A stretch of 64,000 bases of DNA. It comes from Dictyostelium discoideum (lineage: Eukaryota). The notes beneath the pieces were generated by a model, which was not told the DNA's origin, ran no database searches, and was given only the letters and a program-made list of their open reading frames with translations. Of this stretch, positions 38,573-59,214 are shown in pieces. How positions within the stretch are numbered: position 1 is the first letter of the stretch; the number at the start of each line of letters is the position of its first letter. The stretch lies in assembly GCA_000004695.1 (NCBI GenBank), contig CM000152.2, positions 2,240,001 through 2,304,000 of the forward strand, read 5' to 3'. The translations under genes were made by a program, and so were the position numbers.

Positions 38573-40186
38573 TTATAAACCAATTGGTTTATATTGTCTA
38601 TCTCTTTTAACTTTTCTAACAACTAAAACTGCAACTATAACAATTAAGAAAAATCCACCAATGACACCAAATGAAATTCCAACTTTTTGACCAGTTGTTA
38701 ATCCGTTTGTATTATCACTAGAGATTTCGAAATCATCTTTTTCACATTGTAATTTTTTAGATTGATTAATAACAGTACAAAAATATGAAACTGATGGTAA
38801 GCAATCTATACCAAAAGAATTTACAGTATTGGTTTCATTAATTTTAAAAGTAGTACTTGAAAGGTTAATTTTAGAGTTTGTACAATAAACTGAAGGACCA
38901 TGATCATCTTGTTTAGCATAGTTTCCAATGAAGCTAGTACTGTTAATAGTTATACTACTTGAGTAGATATCAATTGCACCACCACTAACTGCTGCGGTAT
39001 TATTAATGAATTGAGATCCAATGATTGTAGTTGGAGTATCGAGAAAAGCATAATTTGAAGAATTTATATTGATAGCACCACCATTTTGGGCAAAGTTATT
39101 GGTGAATATAGAGTTTTTAACTAAACATTCAGTGGCAGTGAGTGAAATAGCACCACCAGAAGAACCTGGTGATTTTTGGTTGTTATTATTTGCAAATAAG
39201 CAACTATCAACTGTAATTAAACCAGAATTTAAACCAAAGATTGGAGCAGTATTTAAATTGTTTACAAAATTACAATTTAAGAAATAAGTCTTTGTAAAAT
39301 AATTTGTGAAAGCAAAACCAATACCACCTAAAGCATTTGTGAAATTTACATTTGTAAATTTGAATTGTGGTGTAGTGAGGAACTCAGATGCTAAAAAGAA
39401 GGCTGCATTAGAAGCAATTGAATCCAATTTTGAATTTGTCATTGTCAATAGACCATTTCTCATATAAATAATACCACCAGATGCTGAGTTTCTAATATTG
39501 CTAAATGAACATTGATCAATTGTAATTACAACATTTAAATCAAAAGCATAAAGTACACCACCGGAAATTTTTGAAGATGTTGAATTATTAAATGTGGTCT
39601 TACTGATATTAATTACACTGTTGGCTGGTGGGTAATCAGATTCGCCATCGGTTGAATCAATTGCAATTGAACCACCACCAATTGTTGCATTATTATTATT
39701 GAATACACAATTATTGATTTCCAATTGTATATTTGATGTACCATTATTGAAAAGTACTGGTCCATATGGTTTATTACCATTTTGAAATGTAATACCAGTG
39801 AATGAAACTATACTTGTGTCATAGATTGATGATGGTTCAATTCTAATAAATGAATCAGTAGCATTTGAAAGATCAATAATTACATCATTGGTTTCTTTAT
39901 TATTATTTACAAGAGTTATAGATTGGTTGGTCACTTTTCCAAATGTTGCTTGATTAATCAAATATGTACCTGGTTCAATATTCATTGTTATGCTTTCAAA
40001 TTGTCCACCACATGATAAAATTGATTGACTAATACTTTGACATGGTGTGGCTGCTGCAGTACCACAATTTTCTGTCAATCCAGATTTTGAGTCTGTATAA
40101 CTAATACATTGTTCTCCTCCCAATACTATATTATCACCAAATATATAAACATATAAAAATAATAATGCAATAATTAATTTATACAT
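38573..40186 (-). CDS. Secreted, membrane-anchored right-handed beta-helix (pectin-lyase-fold-like) repeat protein of 537 aa. Signal peptide, and a single C-terminal transmembrane helix followed by a short basic tail.
   Basis: N-terminal MYKLIIALLFLYVYIFG. Repeated parallel-beta-helix motifs are present: NNNATIGGGSIAIDS, SGGIIYMRNG, GGAISLTATEC, NGGAININSSN, SGGAIDIYSS. The C-terminus reads GISFGVIGGFFLIVIVAVLVVRKVKRDRQYKPIGL*. Single exon. Confidence 0.7.
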   Translation of the reverse strand: MYKLIIALLFLYVYIFGDNIVLGGEQCISYTDSKSGLTENCGTAAATPCQSISQSILSCGGQFESITMNIEPGTYLINQATFGKVTNQSITLVNNNKETNDVIIDLSNATDSFIRIEPSSIYDTSIVSFTGITFQNGNKPYGPVLFNNGTSNIQLEINNCVFNNNNATIGGGSIAIDSTDGESDYPPANSVINISKTTFNNSTSSKISGGVLYAFDLNVVITIDQCSFSNIRNSASGGIIYMRNGLLTMTNSKLDSIASNAAFFLASEFLTTPQFKFTNVNFTNALGGIGFAFTNYFTKTYFLNCNFVNNLNTAPIFGLNSGLITVDSCLFANNNNQKSPGSSGGAISLTATECLVKNSIFTNNFAQNGGAININSSNYAFLDTPTTIIGSQFINNTAAVSGGAIDIYSSSITINSTSFIGNYAKQDDHGPSVYCTNSKINLSSTTFKINETNTVNSFGIDCLPSVSYFCTVINQSKKLQCEKDDFEISSDNTNGLTTGQKVGISFGVIGGFFLIVIVAVLVVRKVKRDRQYKPIGL

Positions 40187-40533: not shown

Positions 40534-43500
40534 TTACAACTGCTCGTCATTACCGTTTGGGGTGTTGAAAGATGAATTATTAGGTGATTCGAAATCATTA
40601 TTAGAATATTCAGAAGGTGAATTTGAGTTTGAATTATTTGAATTTTGGCGAGAATCGCTGATCATTGTTGATAATTTGGTACTGTTTCTATTTTTTGAAC
40701 CTCCGCTATTTGTTGGACTATTATCTGAACTTGTATTAATATTTCTAGCACGTTGTTCAAAACAATACAAAATACTAAATCCAGGAACGATTTCAGTGAT
40801 TATTAAACCAATGAAACTGAATATCATTGAATTTACATTTCCTGCTACTAAAATCAATACAAATACACAATGTAATAAAAATCCAATCGAACATGCAACA
40901 GTGAGTGTAAAAATTTTTCTTTGATGATTTGATTTTGAGCCCACTTTAATATTGGTTGAACGCATAACAATGAATAAACGGCCACCCAAGTAAATGAATG
41001 CTGCACCCATAATTAATGAAATTAATGCTTGAATCACCGCGTAAACAATACTAACTACACGTTGTGGTGTTGAACTTTCCACTGGAATTATAATACGCGA
41101 ACCACAATCATTACTTGGATCGGTATTGGTATATTGGAAAACTAATACAATGGCAATGAATAATAGGTAGAGGAATGCATTGATTACAAATACAATTGTA
41201 AATAATCTCTTTGATAAATTCTCAGCAGATTTATTCTTTTTCAATACCAAGAATACAATGACATACCAAAGTACTAAAAGAATATTAAATGCTGTAAAGT
41301 AAATAAATGTTGGTAATACCACTAGAATGTAATCGGCGATTGGACTATCAGATAAATTACCACTTGGCATAATAAAGAAATAAATGGCTCTAATTGTGAT
41401 AAATAGTGTTACGACACCAATTAAAAGATGGGTTAGTTGGAAATTTCTTTTTTCTGAAACAAACTGAGTTCTAACAATAAGACATAATTCAAATAAACCC
41501 CAAATTGAGACTACTGAAAAGAGAGCACCCAATGTATACATTAATGCTCTTGATGTTGAGTCGAATGCTTGTTTACTTTCATTTTCCCATTCATCCATTC
41601 GATTAATTGGGAAATAAATTGGATTACCACCTTCAATGGTAACAATTGAACATAACATTAAAACTTCATCTTTACCTGCAGTTACACTATCCTTTGAAAT
41701 TTGAGTGAATATTTTATTTGATTGAATTGGAGTTGGTGTTGTTGATTCACCATCGATTTGAACTGCAAAATCTAAAATTGGATATTTTGTGCTAGATAGA
41801 GATATTTTCAAACAAATGGTTGCTTCATTTATACCATCTTGTGATTTAATCATAATACCATCTCCTAATAATGTACCAATGATTGCATCATTAGAGTTTT
41901 TAACACCATATTTATCAGCTTTCTTATAGGATACGAAATTTGATGCTAATGATTCTTTTTGTGCTGATGTATAGATTTCTCTTGAAATTTGTGAAATTGA
42001 TAAAGATTGACAACTTTGAGAGATTGAATCATTTGAAAATTCAATTTTACCATAATCGAATGAAAATGATGAATTTACACCTGCGCATGGTTTAGTTTGA
42101 CCTAATAATGGTGTTGATGCAGTGAAACATTGTGAGCCACCTTTACCTGAACAACTACATGTAATTGAGTTCAAATTTGATTGTAATCTTTCCATACGAC
42201 AATATGCTTCTGAACGGAATAAATCTGCAACTTGAGTTTTTGCTGCTTTTGTAACACTCTTGTAGAATAGTTGATAATTGAATACACTATCGATATCATT
42301 TGGAATGAATGATTTCGCAGTATTCCAAACAATTGGTTTATAAACACCTGGTAACCATGTAGCTGCTTTCCATTGGAATTTATTTGTCCATTTATTGAAT
42401 GAGTCCATACAACCTTCACATAAATCTTGATCCATTTCATTGAATTGGTAGTTGAATGGTAAATTATTAACTGTTATAGTGGATTCTAAAATTTTACAAC
42501 CCATTTGTGATGTACATGAACTTTGATTTCTTGCCGGTATCCACCATACACCACCATCATCTTCACAACTAACTTTACTCAAGTAGTCCAATCCTAATGG
42601 ATAACAACCATTTGGTGAATCTTGTTGGGCATATGGTTCACAACTTATGCCACTAAATTTACCATGTGGGAATAAACATTTACCATATCCATCAGGATAA
42701 TTATAATTTCTTGTAGTGGCTTGATTGAAATAAAATTCATCAGAACAAATACCTGCTGTTAAACATTCTTGTTCAGTTTGACACTCAATTGGTTTTAATG
42801 AGCATAAACTTTGTTGAGCATCTGGACCAATGCATTCACCTTCAAGTTTTGTTGAACAATCTATCCATGTATAACCTGAACCAGCAGTAATACATTGTTG
42901 TTCATCTGTTGCAGATTTTAATATACAAACTTTTGCTTCGGTTGACCATTCAGTTGTACCTACAGGATTATCTAATGCTGCACAATTTGTGCTATTCATT
43001 CCGGTTTGTAAAATTGCACAATAATCATCTTGATTATTTGCTAAACTTGAAGAGCATTCATAACCACATGGTACTGAACATTTACCTTTAGAATTACAAT
43101 TACTTTCGCTTGTTGCTGTTAAATCATATTCACCATTTGGTAAAAGACAAATTTGATTTTGAGTTTGACATGATGTTTGATCTGTAAATTCAGTAGCTAC
43201 ATGACATTGAGTATCTTCATTTGTACAAACACCACAAAAATCTTTTAAAACACAAGCATCTTCACATGACTCTTCAATACCATTTTCAGTATATGTATTA
43301 TCACTGCATGACAAGTATGGACAAATACCCCAAGAAGTACAATTATCAAAATGTGATACTAATCTAAAATCCCAATATAAAAACATACTATCCAAACAAG
43401 TATCATGATGAGAAAGGCATGAACCATCCAAACATCCATTTGTTGAATAACATTGTTCTTTGCTGTATGATACTCTTGACCCCCATGTATATGTAGAACG

Positions 43501-44348
43501 TTCATTTATATCATTTTGACCAATACAATCATCTTTTAAATGTTTATTGAAAACTTTAGTAACAACATCATCATTTACAATGGTTGAACTCTCCAACAAT
43601 GAGAATAATGTACCAGGTGATAAATTTGATAATACACATTTTACATATTCAAAATCGATTTTATTAAAATTTGGTAAACAAGTTCTTGAATATAAATTAC
43701 ATTTACCATCGCCATATCCATTACAATCTGTATCATTTGTACAAAATGATGTTGGTGGTATTAATTTACTCTTGCAATCTCTTAAAACTGTAATTGATGT
43801 TAATTCTAATTTGGTTGGTTCAGTTGATGGCACAGCACAATCATCAATACCATCCAACGAGCTACCATAATCTGATAATACTGATGAGGTACATTCTAGA
43901 CTTGAACATTGTTCACCTACTAAACTTTGATTCACCGATACGAATTGTGTGATGTTAGTTGGAATAATTGATGGATTACAGCATTGATAATAATCCTGAA
44001 TTGGTGAACAACATGGATCAGTTTTATATTCTGGATCAGTACTTAAGTATTGACATAATCTAATTGAAATATTCTTTACAACAGTTTCCATATGTAATAA
44101 TGATAATGCTTTATTACTACAACCTATCCATGCATCACTAATAGTTAATGAATCTAAACTATATCTATAATTATTTAATTCATCAATATCTGATACATTA
44201 AATAATACTTTTTCTGTATTTTCTAACAATTCCAAAACTTGTTGAAATTTATCAGTATCACATTCAATTTCTTTTTCTTTAAATCCAACTTGAATATTAA
44301 TTGGCTAATTAAAAAAAAAAAAAAAAAAAAATGGTTAGTAAATAATAA

Positions 44349-44429
<81 letters not shown>

Positions 44430-45961
44430 CTTACATTATCATTTTCATCAAAAATATTTGAAAGAAATTGTAATTTTGAATTTAAAATTGTTTCAAAATC
44501 AAATACTTTAACTAAATCATTTTTACCAACACTTGAGGAGAGTCTGACAGAAGCTTGAAATGATTTTGGTTTATAGGAACTAAATGAATCCTTTATAATG
44601 TCATCATAAATTAAAAGGTAGTCAAACTTTGGTGTATGGAAAAAGAAGGATGGGACTGGATATAATGGATTAATATCAGTTTGTGGATATAAAATTGTAA
44701 AAGGGTCAGATGCATCAAATGTTGGACCATCATAATATGAAGTTGGGGTATCCAAACGAGCTGTATTTACTAATGATATTGCACCTGCTTGAGTTGTCAT
44801 AAAATTACTTTCATAAAATGAATATCTATATCTATCACCTTGTGTTGTAATTGAAAAAGTATAATTTGTTGAATAAGTTGGTACAGCTGTTATATATATT
44901 GTTGATGGTTCTAAATATAAAACTATATAGTTATCAACTATTTTAAAATAAAAAAAAAATAAAAAAAAACAAATAATAAATATTAAATTAAAAAAAAAAA
45001 AAATTTGTATTAAATTAAAAAAAAAAAAAAACTTACAATCTTCTGATAATTGCCAAAAAGAATCCAATTCTGTTGGCTTTTGAGTTGAATTTGACATATA
45101 ATAAATTACATTTTGGTACATGCATGGGAAATTAAAGTAATAAAATTCTGCTTTATCAACTTGAAAAGAGTAATATTGTGGTTCATATGCCTCTGCCACA
45201 TTATTAATAATTTCACCAGTGGTGATACAAATGTGGTCAGGAGTTGCAGATTGGCAATTTGAAGTATCTACTGTAGCATTTGGTACTTTATTTGTATGAA
45301 GGATTAATGAGAATTTGAAATATTGGCTTTGTGGTACAACATTTATAAAGTAGGTATCTCTAGTCCATGATAATGTATATGAATAATGTTCAGCTACATC
45401 CCAATTATCAGATGGGCAAATATTAAATAATGCCAATCTTTGTGATTTATACTCTGATGAATATCTTTGATAGGTTAATGATGGTGTTGAGCCAATGTAT
45501 GTATCACCATAACCTTCCATTGGAGTGACTTTAAGGAAAACACCATTACAACCAAACGAATCGGCTTTAACCCTAAATCTTTGAATTTTACCACCTGATG
45601 ATTCAAAGCTATATTGTTTATCGAATTCAACCGTTTTCCATTCTCCACTGCATAATTCAATTCCTTCAACGCCAGTTTCGTCACATACATTTGTACAACT
45701 TGGATGACGGATTTTTGGACATTCGTTCATATCTGTATAATCACATGTACAATCAATTTCACTATCACTTGGAATATCTGTACAATTATAGTTTGGACAT
45801 CCCAATGAATCATATTTATAAATATCTTGATCAAATTCGATATCAATCAATGCATATGATAAATCAACACCCAAAACGTTTACATCTTTTTTAACAACTG
45901 TTGATGATTTAACTTCAAAACCTATTTAAAATTATTTTTTATTGTGTTTTTAGAATTTGAG

Positions 45962-45997
<36 letters not shown>

Positions 45998-46201
45998 CAA
46001 TTTCGTAAAACAAAAAATGATCAAATTTGCTTAAAAAAAAAAAAAAAAAAAAAAGACAAATAAAACAAAATAAAATAAAACAAAATAATAATAATATAAA
46101 ATAAAATAAAATAAAATAAAATAAAATAAAATAAAATTACCTTTAATCAAATTTATTATACTCAAAAAAATAAATAGAAATAATAAAAAATTATTCTTCA
46201 T
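40534..46201 (-). CDS. Giant 7TM receptor-like protein, paralogue A (about 1800 aa). 4 exons: about 46141-46201 signal peptide; about 45047-45921; about 44446-44935; 40534-about 44305. Divergent beta-rich N-terminal domain, long Cys-rich ectodomain, C-terminal 7 transmembrane helices, S/N-rich cytoplasmic tail.
   Basis: Exon1 MKNNFLLFLFIFLSIINLIK is followed by a GTAATT donor. Exon2 GFEVKSSTVVKKDVNVLGVDLSYALIDIEFD... runs to ...WQLSED with a GTAAGT donor. Exon3 ..DNYIVLYLEP... runs to ...IFDENDN with a GTAAGT donor. The (AAT)n intron ends ..aattag. Exon4 PINIQVGFKEKEIECDTDKFQQVLELLENTEKVLFNVSDIDELNNYRY... is the 1233-aa ORF. The ORF-track start MELLE is a TTG codon, not a real Met. Seven hydrophobic helices: ALMYTLGALFSVVSIWGLFELCLIV, LLIGVVTLFITIRAIYFFIM, YILVVLPTFIYFTAFNILLVLWYVIVF, LFTIVFVINAFLYLLFIAIVLVF, VVSIVYAVIQALISLIMGAAFIYLGG, IFTLTVACSIGFLLHCVFVLILVA, MIFSFIGLIITEIVPGFSILYCF. 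Confidence 0.7.
44340..44420. repeat. (AAT)n microsatellite in the last intron of paralogue A. The equivalent (AAT)n lies at about 50800-50930 in paralogue B.
   Basis: Direct reading of perfect trinucleotide runs at orthologous intron positions. Confidence 0.9.
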
Positions 46202-46921: not shown

Positions 46922-52826
<5,905 letters not shown>

Positions 52827-53477: not shown

Positions 53478-56400
53478 TCAATCATCATTACTGGTTGGAG
53501 TGTTGACTGATGAATTATTGGGTGATTCGAAATCATTATTTGAATACTCGGATGGTGAATTGGAATTAGTATTAATTGAATTTTGACGAGAATCGCTAAC
53601 CATTGTCGATAATCTCGTTCCTTTTTCTCTCTTTGAGCCACCTCTACTGCTACCCCTAGTTGTTCCACTTGCGGTGTCAGCAACATTATTTTTAGCACGT
53701 TGGTCAAAGCAGAATAAAATACTACATGCTGGAATAATTTCAGTGATTATTAAACCAATGAAACTGAATACCATTGAATTTACATTTCCTGCTACTAAAA
53801 TCAAAACAAAAGCACAATGTAATAAAAACCCAATTGAGCAAACGAATGAAAGTATGAAAATTTTTCTTTGATGATTTGATTTTGAGCCCACTTTAATATT
53901 GGTTGAACGCATAACAATGAATAAACGGCCACCCAAGTAAATGAATGCTGCACCCATAATTAATGAAATTAATGCTTGAATCACCGCATAAACAATACTA
54001 ACTACACGTTGTGGTGTTGAACTTTCAATTGGAATTATAATACGTGAACCACAATCATTGGTTGGATTTGATTTGGTATATTGGAAAACCAATACAATTG
54101 CAATGAATAATAGGTAGAGGAATGCATTGATTACAAATACAATTGTAAATAATCTGTTTGTTAGATTATCAGCAGATTTATTCTTTTTCAATACCAGGAA
54201 AACAATGACATACCAAAGTACTAAAAGAATATTAAATGCTGTAAAGTAAATAAATGTTGGTAATACCACAAGAATGTAATCAATGATTGGACTATCGGAT
54301 AAATTACCACTTGGCATAATAAAGAAATAAATGGCTCTAATTGTGATAAATAGTGTTACGACACCAATTAAAAGATGAGTTAATTGGAATTTTCTTTTAA
54401 TTGATATATTTCTTTGTTTATATCTTGCAATTGCGATTAAACATAGTTCAAATCCACCCCACAACGCGACAACCAAAAAGAAGGTGGCCAATGTATACAT
54501 TAATGCCTTTGATGTCGAGTCGAATGCTTGTTTTCTTTCATCCTCCCATTCATCCATACGATTAATTGGGAAATAAATTGGATTACCACCTTCAATGGTA
54601 ACAATTGAACATAACATTAAAACTTCATCTTTACCTGCAGTTACACTATCCTCTGAAATTTGAGTGAAAACTTTACTTGATTGAATTGGATTTGGTGTTT
54701 TTGATTCAATATCATAACTACCATCATTTATTTGAATTGCAAAATCATAAATTGGATATTTTGAATTATTTGTTCCAGATATTGTTAAACAAATGGTTGC
54801 TTCATTTATACCATCTTGTGATTTAATCATAATACCATCTCCTAATAATGTACCAATGATTGCATCATTAGAGTTTTTAACACCATATTTATCAGCTTTC
54901 TTATAGGATACGAAATTTGATGCTAATGATTCTTTTTGTGCTGATGTATAGATTTCTCTTGAAATTTGTGAAATTGATAAAGATTGACAACTTTGAGAGA
55001 TTGAATCATTTGAAAATTCAATTTTACCATAATCGAATGAAAATGATGAATTTACACCTGCGCATGGTTTAGTTTGACCTAATAATGGTGTTGATGCAGT
55101 GAAACATTGTGAGCCACCTTTACCTGAACAACTACATGTAATTGAGTTCAAATTTGATTGTAATCTTTCCATACGACAATATGCTTCTGAACGGAATAAA
55201 TCTGCAACTTGAGCTTTTGCTGCTTTTGTAACACTCTTGTAGAATAGTTGATAATTGAATACATCTCTATTTTCATTTGGAATGAATGATTTTGCAGTAT
55301 TCCAAACAATTGGTTTATAAACACCTGGTAACCATGTGGCTGCTTCCCATTGGAATTTATTTGTCCATTTATTGAATGAATCTATACATGCTTCACATGT
55401 TTCTTGGTTCATTTCATTAAAATGGAAGTTGTATGGTAAATTGGTTTCATATGATTCTAAAATTTTACAACCCATTTGTAATGTACATGAACTTTGATTT
55501 CTTGCTGGTGTCCACCATACACCACCATCATCTTCACAATCGATTTGAGTTAAAACCATTGGATTAATAGAGTAGCAACCATTTGGTGAATCTTGTTGTT
55601 CAGACTCCTTACATGAAATTAAATATTGATAATTATCATGTGGGAACACACATCTACCCAATCCAACAGGATAATGATTATTTGCAAGAGAACTAAAGTA
55701 AAAGTCATCGGAACAAGTACCTGCTGCTGTTAAACATTCTTGTTCAGTTTGACATTCAATTGGTTTTAGTGAACAAAGTTTTACATTATTTAATGGTCCA
55801 GAACATTCACCTTCAAGTTTTGTTGAACAATCTATCCATGTATAATTTGTACCAGTGGCAGTACATTGTTGTTCATCCGTTGCAGATTTTAATATACAAA
55901 CATTTGCTTCGGTTGACCATTCAGTTGTACCTACAGGATTATCTAATGCTGCACAATTTGTGCTATTCATTCCGGTTTGTAAAATTGCACAATAATCATC
56001 TTGATTATTTGCTAAACTTGAAGAGCATTCATAACCACATGGTACTGAACATTTACCTTTAGAATTACAATTACTTTCGCTTGTTGCTGTTAAATCATAT
56101 TCACCATTTGGTAAAAGACAAATTTGATTTTGAGTTTGACATGATGTTTGATCTGTAAATTCAGTAGCTACATGACATTGAGTATCTTCATTTGTACAAA
56201 CACCACAAAAATCTTTTAAAACACAAGCATCTTCACATGACTCTTCAATGCCATTTTCAGTATATGTATTATCTTTGCAAGACAAGTATGGACAAATACC
56301 CCAATCAGTACAATTATCAACATGAGAAACTAATCTAAAATCCCAATGTGCATAAATTGACTCAATACAAGTATCATGATAGGTAATACATGATTCATCA

Positions 56401-58845
56401 ATACATTCTTGATGTTGAACTGCATAACAATCATCTACTTGGAATCCTGGTGACCAAATAAATGTTGAACGATCTTTAATATAATTATGACCAATACAAT
56501 CCTCTCTTATATGGTTATTGAAAACTTTAGTTACAACATCATCATTTACTGTTGTTGAACCTTCTAACAATGAGAATAATGTACCAGGTGATAAGTGTAA
56601 TAGTACACATTTTACATATTCAAAATCGATTGTATCAAAATCTGGTATACAAGTTCTTGAGTATAAATTACATTCACCATTTCCATATCCATTACAATCT
56701 GTATCATTTGAACAAAATGGTGATACTAATTTACTCTTGCAATCTCTTAAAACTGTAATTGATGTTAATTCTAATTTTTTAGGTTCAATTGATGGCACAG
56801 CACAATCATCAATACCAGTTAACGAACTACCATAATCTGATAATACTGATGAGGTACATTCTTGACTTGAACATTGTTCACTTACTAAACTTTTATTCAC
56901 CGATATGAATTGTGTAACATTTTTTAAAACAATTGATGGATTACAACATTGATAATATCTAGCCAATTCTGAACAACATGGGTCAGTTTTATATTCTGGA
57001 TCAGTGACGAAATGTGAACAATATTTTGTTGATATATTCTTTGCAACAGTTTCCATATGTAATAATGATAATGCTTTATTACTACAACCTATCCATGCAT
57101 CACTAATAGTCAATGAATCTAAACTATATCTATAATTATTTAATTCATCAATATCCGAAACATTAAATAGTGTTGTCTCTGTTTTTTCAATAAGTCCCAA
57201 AACTTTTTCAAATTCTGTATTATTACATTCTAAATTTTTTTCTTTAAAATTAATAGTTAAATCAATTGGCTAAAGTAATAATAATAATAATAATAAAAAA
57301 TAAATGTTAATAATTTTTTAAAAAATAAATGTTAATAATTTTTTAAAAAATAAAAATAAAAATTTAATATTATTATTTACATTATTATTTTCATCAAAAA
57401 TAGTTCCAAGGAATTGTAAAGATGATTCTAAAATTGTTGAATAATTTTCAATAAAATCACCACCAACTGAAAGAATAAATGCAACTTGAAATGATTTTGG
57501 TTTAAAAGTATTTAATGGTGGCTGTAAAATATTTAAATAGTTAAATGAAGTTGAATCAATGAAACGAGCAGATACTGGCCATAATGGATTTATATCGTAT
57601 TGTGGATAAATTGCGGTGAATGTAGTGCTAGTTGTAAAAGCTGCTGAATCATAATCAATAGTTGGCAAACGTAAACGTACACTATTAACCAATGCTAAAG
57701 TACCAGGTTGTGTTGATAATGATCCCAATGAATATCTATACCTATTACCTTGATTTGTAATTGAAAATGAATAATCTGTTTCATAAACTGTATATACACT
57801 TAAATAAATAATTAATGGTGTTGTACTATCAACTGGTTCCAAATATAATACCATATTATTTTCATCTAAAAAAAAAATAAAAAATAAAAAATAAAAAAAC
57901 AATTAATAAATTAATAAATTAATAAATTAATAAAATTATTATTATTTAAATACGTTACAATCTTGTTCTAATTTCCAAGTTGTATAACTGGCATTTGGAA
58001 ATATATATTCGTTTGAAATAAATATTGAAGTACTTTGAAAAATTGAAGGGAAATTAAAATAATAGAAACCAGCATTTTCAACTTGAAATGAATAATGTTG
58101 ATATTGATTATCTGTTAAGAAACCATAGACAACTTGACCAATAGTTACACATATATGGTCAGATGATACTGGTTGACAATTTGAAGTGTCGACAGGTTCA
58201 CTTGGTACATCATTTGAACGAATGATCATTTTAAAAGTATAATTGTTACTAAGTGGTTGAATTCTTAAAAAGTAAGTGTCACGACTCCAAGAATCTGTGA
58301 ATGTAAAATGTTCAGTTCTATTCCAATTATCTGATGGACATATATTGAATAACATATTTCTTTCAGGTGAAAAACCAGATGAATAACGTGAATAGCTTGA
58401 TGATGGTGTTTTACCATTAATATAAACTTGACCATATCCAGAGATTGGTAAAACTTTTAAAAATAAACCTTTACAACCAAATGAATCGGCTTTCATTCTA
58501 AAAAATAGATCCTCTGATGTAGTATAGATTTTTTCTGTATCCGATTCAATAGTTGTCCATTCGCCATTACAAATATTCTCAGTGACATTACATGCATTTG
58601 TACAACTTGGATCACGGATTTTCGGACATTCGTTCATATCTGTATAATCACATGTACAATCTATATTCTTATCACTTGGAATATCTGTACAATTATAGTT
58701 TGGACATCCCAATGAATCATATAAATAAATATCTTGATCAAATTCAACATCAATCAATGCATATGATAAATCGGTTCCCAATAAGTTAACATCTTTTTTT
58801 ATAATAGTTGACGATTTAACTTCAATACCTATTTACAATTATTTT

Positions 58846-58899
<54 letters not shown>

Positions 58900-59214
58900 G
58901 TATTTTTAGAATTTTTGATTTTCACGTTTTACAAAAAAAAAAAATAGTGCGAAAAAAAAAAACAGTGCGAAAAAAAAACAGTTCGAATTGTTTTTTTTTT
59001 TTTTTTTTCAGATTCCGTGTGGTAAAATAATTATAATTGTTTATTTTTTGATCTTCGTAAAAATAAAAAAAAATAAAAATAAAACAAAAAAGATAAAAAT
59101 AAAAAAAATAATAATAATGAAAAAAGAAATTAATTTACCTCTGATTTTATTTATAAAAAAAAGATGGAACGAAAATAAGAAAATGTAAAATATTACAATA
59201 TTTTTAACATTCAT
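53478..59214 (-). CDS. Giant 7TM receptor-like protein, paralogue C, same architecture: about 59139-59214; about 57966-58828; about 57381-57869; 53478-about 57268.
   Basis: Exon1 MNVKNIVIFYIFLFSFHLFFINKIR(G) has a GTAAAT donor. Exon2 GIEVKSSTIIKKDVNLLGTDLSYALIDVEFDQDIYLYDSLGCPNYNCTDIP...TWKLEQD has a GTAACG donor. Exon3 (acceptor ttttttag) ..ENNMVLYLEPVDSTTPLIIY...IFDENNN has a GTAAAT donor. Exon4 is the 1240-aa ORF MGLIEKTETTLFNVSD...; its real exon start lies upstream at the ..ctttag acceptor at about 57268. The 7TM region is about 95% identical to A and B. Confidence 0.7.

Follow-up and report, generated by a model that had tools for sequence, protein, structure and literature searches.

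Tandem beta-sandwiches predicted in the N-terminal module of three clustered seven-helix proteins of Dictyostelium discoideum

The plant seven-transmembrane (7TM) proteins TOM1, TOM3 and THH1 are of about 290 residues and carry no large ectodomain. Here we describe a cluster of three tandem genes in a 64,000-nucleotide stretch of the Dictyostelium discoideum genome (contig CM000152.2, positions 2,240,001 to 2,304,000 of the forward strand; hereafter the window), whose products end in a 7TM domain that, like the plant proteins, matches PF06454, but which carry ahead of it an N-terminal module (the N-module) and a stalk, additions that are seen only in the amoebal family. The closest described folds are found in other settings. 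The pre-peptidase C-terminal (PPC, PF04151) domains, such as ColG s3a/s3b and ColH s3, are beta-sandwiches that lie C-terminally on secreted bacterial proteases. In SID-1, SIDT1 and SIDT2 (the ChUP proteins), a double jelly roll some 260 residues long occupies the N-terminus ahead of a multi-pass membrane domain (PMC10769365), and in the GOST proteins (TMEM87, GPR107/108, GPR180 and TMEM145) a luminal or extracellular beta-sandwich head, possibly ligand-recognising, sits on a 7TM body (PMC11605061, PMC9711517). In the amoebal proteins, beta-sandwich folds familiar from binding domains are set on a TOM1-type 7TM protein in an arrangement that is restricted to the lineage and has no annotation. 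By analogy with these systems, we consider it reasonably probable that the N-module is the membrane-distal head of a receptor-like seven-helix protein, with two sandwiches as its most likely binding surface and three such heads borne on a near-identical body.

A first-pass annotation, made from the letters of the DNA, had taken the region for an extracellular module at the N-terminus of three tandem paralogues, and the gene models, with their signal peptide and 7TM domain, bear this out. The region (bases 44435-45921 of the window, minus strand) comprises exons 2 and 3 of copy A, a four-exon minus-strand gene for a protein of 1739 residues (exons 46141-46201, 45037-45921, 44435-44937 and 40534-44304). 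Paralogues B (46922-52826; 1775 residues) and C (53478-59214; 1740 residues) lie in tandem with it on the same strand, and a tblastn search across the window found no copies beyond these three. Exon 1 of copy A (46141-46201) encodes the signal peptide MKNNFLLFLFIFLSIINLIK(G), an ATG and a hydrophobic 19-mer (residues 1-19; KD 1.84) followed by a gtaat donor; exons 2 and 3 coincide exactly with the N-module (residues 22-483); and exon 4 encodes a Cys-rich extracellular stretch of about 900 residues, the 7TM domain and a cytoplasmic tail. The sole part of copy A known to Pfam is the 7TM domain, whose match to PF06454 exceeds the gathering score (47.1 bits, cut-off 25; E 2.8e-12; profile positions 15-258 of 273) and which contains seven hydrophobic segments at residues 1403-1662; homologues bear the same precomputed annotation. 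Because the protein has both a signal peptide and a 7TM domain, we infer that the N-module faces the cell exterior or a lumen.

The limits of the module and of its exons differ from those first drawn. The module had been expected to extend to about residue 520; it ends at residue 483 (44435). Exon 3 had been taken as a beta-rich unit beginning at LYLEP, whereas the exon 2/3 boundary cuts through the second sandwich, in the middle of which LYLEP forms a strand. Judged from sequence, the most likely start of the exon is five codons upstream of LYLEP, at 44937 (..ED|F-DNYIVLYLEP, acceptor at 44938), because this acceptor leaves the three copies colinear and agrees with the proteins of D. firmibasis and D. 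purpureum. In copy A, intron 2 (99 nucleotides, 44938-45036, minus strand), whose gtaag donor and ag acceptor were positioned so as to keep colinearity with B, C and the orthologues, is in frame and free of stops, and the mechanical open reading frame (ORF) 44309-45874 reads through it, inserting a Phe-rich pseudo-peptide. In B and in C, unlike copy A, exons 2 and 3 are in different frames.

Structure was predicted with AlphaFold2 for the D. firmibasis orthologue of copy A (86% identical across the module) from a 33-row alignment, giving a predicted local distance difference test score (pLDDT) of 87.8 and a predicted template modelling score (pTM) of 0.87, with a single loop below a pLDDT of 50. 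The strands of this model agree with the earlier expectation of a beta-rich module, and the whole would form a compact four-part unit in which a hairpin clamped by an eight-Cys knot is joined to two sandwiches and an alpha/beta subdomain with the motif NPLWPVP. The long beta-hairpin and a third strand (residues 22-61, 45800-45921, minus strand, as are all parts given here; VKSSTVVKKDVNV / VDLSYALIDIEF / YKYDSL; model strands E4-16, E19-30 and E35-40, pLDDT 89-96) make up the part best conserved between paralogues, with 77% of strand positions identical in A, B and C. The knot (residues 62-114, 45641-45799; CPNYNC...IDCTCDYTD.NECPKIR.PSC..VC...C.G) has little regular secondary structure in the model (pLDDT 75-92), and its Cys columns 42, 47, 59, 61, 69, 77, 81 and 92 are 90-100% conserved in about 30 sequences. 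Beta-sandwich 1 (residues 115-237, 45272-45640), with seven model strands (E105-213), contains FRVKA, FGCNGVFLKV, LFNICPSD and SWTRDTYFINV as well as conserved Cys at model positions 126 and 170, and its fold matches are to PPC/collagen-binding and jelly-roll domains. Beta-sandwich 2 is split by intron 2 into an exon 2 part (residues 238-315, 45038-45271; C..H.C, QYYSFQV and FYYFNF; model strands E231-293) and a translation-checked exon 3 part (residues 316-360, 44804-44937; NYIVLYL, STIYITAVP, TNYTFSIT and RYRYS; model strands E299-336); YYSFQV and FYYFNF are consecutive strands within it. Each sandwich thus bears two conserved Cys in addition to the eight of the knot. The alpha/beta subdomain (residues 361-483, 44435-44803, to the exon 3 donor) carries the family-wide motifs NPL(W/Y)PVP and KPKSFQ and is modelled as H346-353 and E357-455, with pLDDT mostly 84-96 and a loose loop at 407-414; NPLWPVP is 70-90% conserved.

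The first-pass annotation had listed four Cys and aromatic motifs as kept in all three copies, and this holds exactly for two of them, CPN(Y/F)xC(T/K)DIP...IDCTCDYTD(M/V)NECPKIR(H/D)P(S/T)C and LFNICPSD(N/S), which are found in A, B and C. The other two deviate in one copy each: FGC(N/K)G..LKV occurs in A and C, with YDCKGLYFKV in B, and D(K/N)A.FYYFNFP occurs in A and B, with ENAGFYYFNFP in C. Twelve Cys columns reach 90-100% conservation in a set of about 30 members of the family, drawn from four dictyostelid genera. FYYFNFP as such is shared just by close Dictyostelium species; further out, the Y of YYxF and the P are all that is kept. Over the whole family the motifs ICPxD, WTxDTYFI and NPLWPVP are the strongest, and NPLWPVP had been missed in the earlier list. 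Copy A also has a thirteenth, unpaired Cys at residue 287 (window positions about 45122-45124), directly after FYYFNFP and present in the D. firmibasis orthologue, whereas B and C lack a Cys at this position; it could be a free thiol or a site of intermolecular disulfide formation.

At the sequence level the module is undescribed and without an assignable family, as had been anticipated: copy A gave no Pfam match to the N-module at E<=1, and neither a 3-row nor a 33-row profile matched any PDB sequence. The suggested likeness of its YYxF motif to PPC domains is upheld in fold and not in family membership. Foldseek aligned both sandwiches with the tandem collagen-binding domains (CBD) of ColG (E 5e-8), and the fold superposes on solved PPC/collagen-binding jelly-roll domains; the Pfam PPC gathering score was missed, with no match for copies A, B and C and one of 33 family rows at a sub-threshold E of 0.02. 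A profile comparison in hhalign against a two-sequence ColG template (s3a+s3b, template sequence 100% identical to 5iku_A) gave E 1.4e-3, a probability of 17% and 72-81 columns in register across the entire domain for sandwich 2, weakly pairing its YYSFQV/FYYFNF hairpin with DYYSFEV/GEVNIEL of ColG s3b (YYtFxV against D(Y/F)YxFxV); sandwich 1 against the same template gave E 0.09. Aligned with each other for signs of internal duplication, the two sandwiches gave only E 0.029 and a probability of 1.7%, too little for a duplication to be claimed. The N-module is PPC-like by fold, yet it fails the PPC family sequence test.

What the N-module shares with the PPC domains is the beta-sandwich (jelly-roll) fold of about 95-115 residues and, with ColG s3a-s3b, the tandem arrangement and, in the weak hhalign alignment, a YYxFxV strand with a hydrophobic partner next after it. 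The differences are considerable: sequence identity is 10-14%, the host is bacterial there and eukaryotic here, and PPC proteins lack the flanking hairpin-knot and alpha/beta subdomain. The ColG CBDs have a Ca2+-dependent N-terminal linker, in place of which the amoebal sandwiches would have conserved Cys pairs. One may postulate that the sandwiches are a true PPC pro-domain, aiding secretion or folding and cleaved after export as in bacterial pre-peptidases, and the single family member that reaches Pfam PPC at E 0.02 would point that way. We regard this as highly implausible, however; the module follows a signal peptide at the N-terminus of a 7TM protein rather than lying at the C-terminus of a secreted peptidase, the Pfam search of copy A found no peptidase domain, the sandwiches are embedded in a compact four-part unit (pTM 0.87), and a stable extracellular structure in the mature protein is indicated by the twelve conserved Cys.

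The best Foldseek matches were to SIDT/SID-1 ectodomains (E 2e-8, about 285 aligned columns spanning both sandwiches), and the N-module shares with SID-1/ChUP proteins an N-terminal double jelly roll ahead of a multi-pass membrane domain. TM-scores to SIDT/SID-1 and to ColG were about 0.19, which indicates that the domains are the same but are oriented differently relative to each other. SID-1/ChUP proteins differ further in their 11-TM core with its zinc site, in place of which the amoebal proteins have a THH1/TOM1/TOM3-type 7TM domain and no SID-1_RNA_chan domain, in having no stalk of about 900 residues before the membrane, and in sharing no sequence similarity with the N-module. The GOST proteins resemble the amoebal ones in bearing a beta-sandwich head on a 7TM body, but in them one GOLD domain sits immediately on the 7TM domain, and the fold scores were weaker than those for PPC; a GOLD-type head directly before a GOST-type 7TM was not found here, nor was PF06814 or PF10192 in the Pfam search. 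Matches in a viral fold library were to generic binding sandwiches, namely tail-fibre, receptor-binding, CUB, PA14 and carbohydrate-binding module (CBM) domains.

The SIDT match admits another explanation, in which the double sandwich is a structural cap or dimerisation element on the stalk or the 7TM domain with no specific ligand, and its divergence between copies reflects neutral drift outside the reach of gene conversion; indeed, the SIDT ectodomain lines the dimer interface (PMC10769365). The stalk of about 900 residues separates the N-module from the 7TM domain, however, such that it cannot sit on the membrane domain as in SIDT, and the TM-score of 0.19 reflects sandwiches that are oriented differently. 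We judge this explanation unlikely on these grounds together with the pattern of divergence, to which we now turn and which contains points on both sides of the matter.

Identity between paralogues is 44-55% in the N-module, 74-82% in the middle (stalk) region and 87-89% in the 7TM region. The N-module of B (50996-52514, minus strand; exon 2 51600-52514, exon 3 50996-51486) is 44% identical to that of A, and the N-module of C (57381-58828, minus strand; exon 2 57959-58828, exon 3 57381-57865) is 55% identical. Within the module, 56-77% of the hairpin and knot is invariant between paralogues as against 22-40% of the sandwiches and alpha/beta subdomain, and loops are slightly more variable than strands. 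Nei-Gojobori estimates of synonymous divergence (dS) and of the ratio of nonsynonymous to synonymous divergence (dN/dS), made for the three paralogue pairs, were 0.65-0.95 and 0.48-0.57 in the N-module, 0.18-0.35 and 0.44-0.68 in the middle region, 0.21-0.28 and 0.24-0.32 in the 7TM domain, and 1.15-1.42 and 0.16-0.35 in the cytoplasmic tail.

The middle of the gene is thus young at silent sites, and in some 100-codon windows the proportion of synonymous differences (pS) between A and C falls to 0.00-0.03. At residues 822-921, A and C are 100% identical whereas A and its orthologue are 83% identical, and at residues 1222-1321 the corresponding values are 96% and 89%. Because A and C resemble each other in such segments more closely than either resembles its D. 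firmibasis orthologue (83-89%), the comparison confirms that mosaic gene conversion homogenises exon 4. Segments of 96-100% identity recur between exon 4 of A (40534-44304) and of C (53478-57269), for example at A residues 822-921 and 1169-1321, and these segments are likewise homogenised in D. firmibasis, with 96-100% identity between its two paralogues.

The N-module and tail, in contrast, retain strict orthology with D. firmibasis. N-module identity to the D. firmibasis orthologue is 86% for A, 82% for C and 67% for B, as against the 44-55% found between paralogues, which implies that the three head types predate the split of D. discoideum and D. firmibasis and that each has been maintained since. 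The structural cap explanation gains from the N-module dN/dS of about 0.5, the same as that of the stalk, and from an N-module dS three to four times that of exon 4, which makes the contrast between regions partly an artefact of conversion; it loses from the greater similarity of orthologues (67-86%) than of paralogues, according to which each version is under its own purifying selection rather than drifting. The cytoplasmic tails (40534-40770, 46922-47160 and 53478-53720) show the same pattern, with 40-69% identity between paralogues and 84-90% between one-to-one orthologues; it follows that every head type has kept a tail of its own, and the tails may have paralogue-specific intracellular partners.

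Variable heads on a homogenised body resemble recognition-receptor families, and tandem arrays of this kind, conserved in D. firmibasis (RB653_004105 and RB653_004106), would also be expected of cell-cell recognition or adhesion heads that make homophilic or heterophilic contacts in aggregation, like other tandem diversified amoeba surface families. This scenario appears distinctly improbable to us, given that A and C are 82-86% conserved between species, contrary to hypervariability, that no signal of positive selection was seen, and that the Pfam search of copy A found no Ig/IPT or other known adhesion repeats. The pattern as a whole fits three specialised, selectively maintained binding heads on a body that gene conversion keeps uniform.

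We accordingly return to the reading of the N-module as a receptor-like head. In a type-I-oriented order of signal peptide, N-module, Cys-rich stalk of about 900 residues, THH1/TOM1/TOM3-type 7TM domain and cytoplasmic tail, the sandwiches would bind an extracellular or luminal macromolecule, e.g., a glycan, a matrix component or a protein; the three tandem genes would supply three different heads on a near-identical stalk and 7TM body; and binding would be relayed to the 7TM domain. Such a role is suggested by analogy with PPC/collagen-binding, CBM-like and CUB-like sandwiches and with the SID-1 double jelly roll; that the N-module binds a ligand is probable, although we infer both this and the kind of ligand from that analogy.

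Several observations call for caution in this interpretation. The first-pass annotation had held that the N-module is where the copies differ most and is hence the candidate ligand-binding part; identity is indeed lower there than in the middle and 7TM regions and each version is conserved between orthologues, but the argument from divergence is weakened in that much of the contrast comes from gene conversion in exon 4, which has lowered dS three- to four-fold. Positive selection as the cause of the divergence was rejected, the N-module dN/dS of about 0.5 being no higher than that of the stalk. The modelled protein is the orthologue, and copy A read through its intron (5 rows) gave a pLDDT of 37.6. 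Plant TOM1 is a tonoplast protein, which bears on whether the amoebal proteins reside in the plasma membrane or in endomembranes. Beta-sandwiches can also be structural or dimerising, as the SIDT ectodomain illustrates (PMC10769365). Finally, a literature search on the N-module family in Dictyostelium found nothing specific and no experiment; the only related mention was of a choanoflagellate G-protein-coupled receptor family with a weak structural link to THH1/TOM1/TOM3 (PMC12716839).

The proteins are already in public databases, only as hypothetical or THH1/TOM1/TOM3 domain-containing entries with about 1380 ectodomain residues unannotated. The model gives the first 460 residues a confidently predicted fold, a tandem PPC/collagen-binding-like double sandwich that suggests a binding role, and an anonymous gene cluster becomes the source of a testable receptor hypothesis as well as a clean example of mosaic concerted evolution. 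Nothing known is overturned; the folds are common ones, and the function is proposed. A bolder and quite doubtful extension is that the hairpin-knot, the double sandwich and the NPLWPVP subdomain together make up an undescribed ectodomain family, one that constitutes a distinct amoebal class of surface receptor on a TOM1-type 7TM domain, in which conversion would keep the signalling body uniform and selection would keep at least three recognition heads. If that were true, the heads might serve to detect polymers of bacteria or of the matrix or, as SID-1 does, to capture a cargo of nucleic acid or lipid, and the TOM1/THH1 7TM fold would gain its first candidate ligand-gated members.

Relatives were retrieved by a search with exon 4 and by an exhaustive HMMER profile search; a seeded search with the spliced N-module gave no match. 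Run against 1.84 billion representative proteins, the HMMER profile gave 32 matches to the N-module, none outside this same protein family. Three quarters of these (24 of 32, at E <= 1e-10) are nearly all 1100-1870 residues long, among them two short or partial models (287 and 1345 residues) and one fused two-copy model of 3464 residues; the entries that were looked up belong to D. firmibasis, D. purpureum, Cavenderia fasciculata and Acytostelium subglobosum, and each bears the name hypothetical or THH1/TOM1/TOM3 domain-containing. D. firmibasis supplies the nearest proteins in the databases, at 77% across exon 4, and in that species the tandem arrangement recurs in the adjoining genes RB653_004105 and RB653_004106. 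The remaining eight matches are short fragments of environmental eukaryotes, in metagenome or SRA assemblies, that cover the hairpin-knot and, if long enough, sandwich 1. One of them (L002, SRR30176336, GC 32%) is colinear on into the stalk region, which indicates that the environmental fragments are more distant members of the same family rather than different uses of the module. In another (L001, SRR29457793, GC about 42%) the called ORF stops and a short downstream ORF reading ..RLSFCPAD...LYIQL resembles ICPxD...TYFI, which suggests an intron or frameshift between the two. Several public models look wrong: D. firmibasis RB653_004106 (P0009, 3464 residues) appears to be a head-to-tail fusion of the B and A orthologues, D. 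purpureum DICPUDRAFT_96277 (P0003) has an unrelated N-terminal extension of about 250 residues before the N-module and no signal peptide, and three others (P0004, P0006 and P0007) begin at exon 3.

The window is very AT-rich (GC 15-33%), of Dictyostelium type, with short gtaag...ag introns and homopolymer runs. Intron 3 of A (44305-44434) and of B (50783-50995) consists mostly of a long (TAA/ATT)n microsatellite between poly-A/T runs, and the copy C intron at 57270-57380 has no long array of this kind. Minus-strand ORFs at 5750-37554 match Nuf2, Pumilio/PUF repeats, an AMP-binding enzyme, RasGEF, RhoGAP and GRAM in Pfam, with WD40 sub-threshold; these are ordinary housekeeping and signalling genes without an evident link to the cluster. 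Directly downstream of the cluster (38573-40186, minus strand) lies a gene for a 537-residue protein that has no Pfam match; it has a signal peptide and a C-terminal transmembrane anchor, and its repetitive N/G/S-rich segments (e.g., NNNATIGGGSIAI and AAVSGGAIDIYSS) are reminiscent of parallel beta-helix or polymorphic-membrane-protein repeats.
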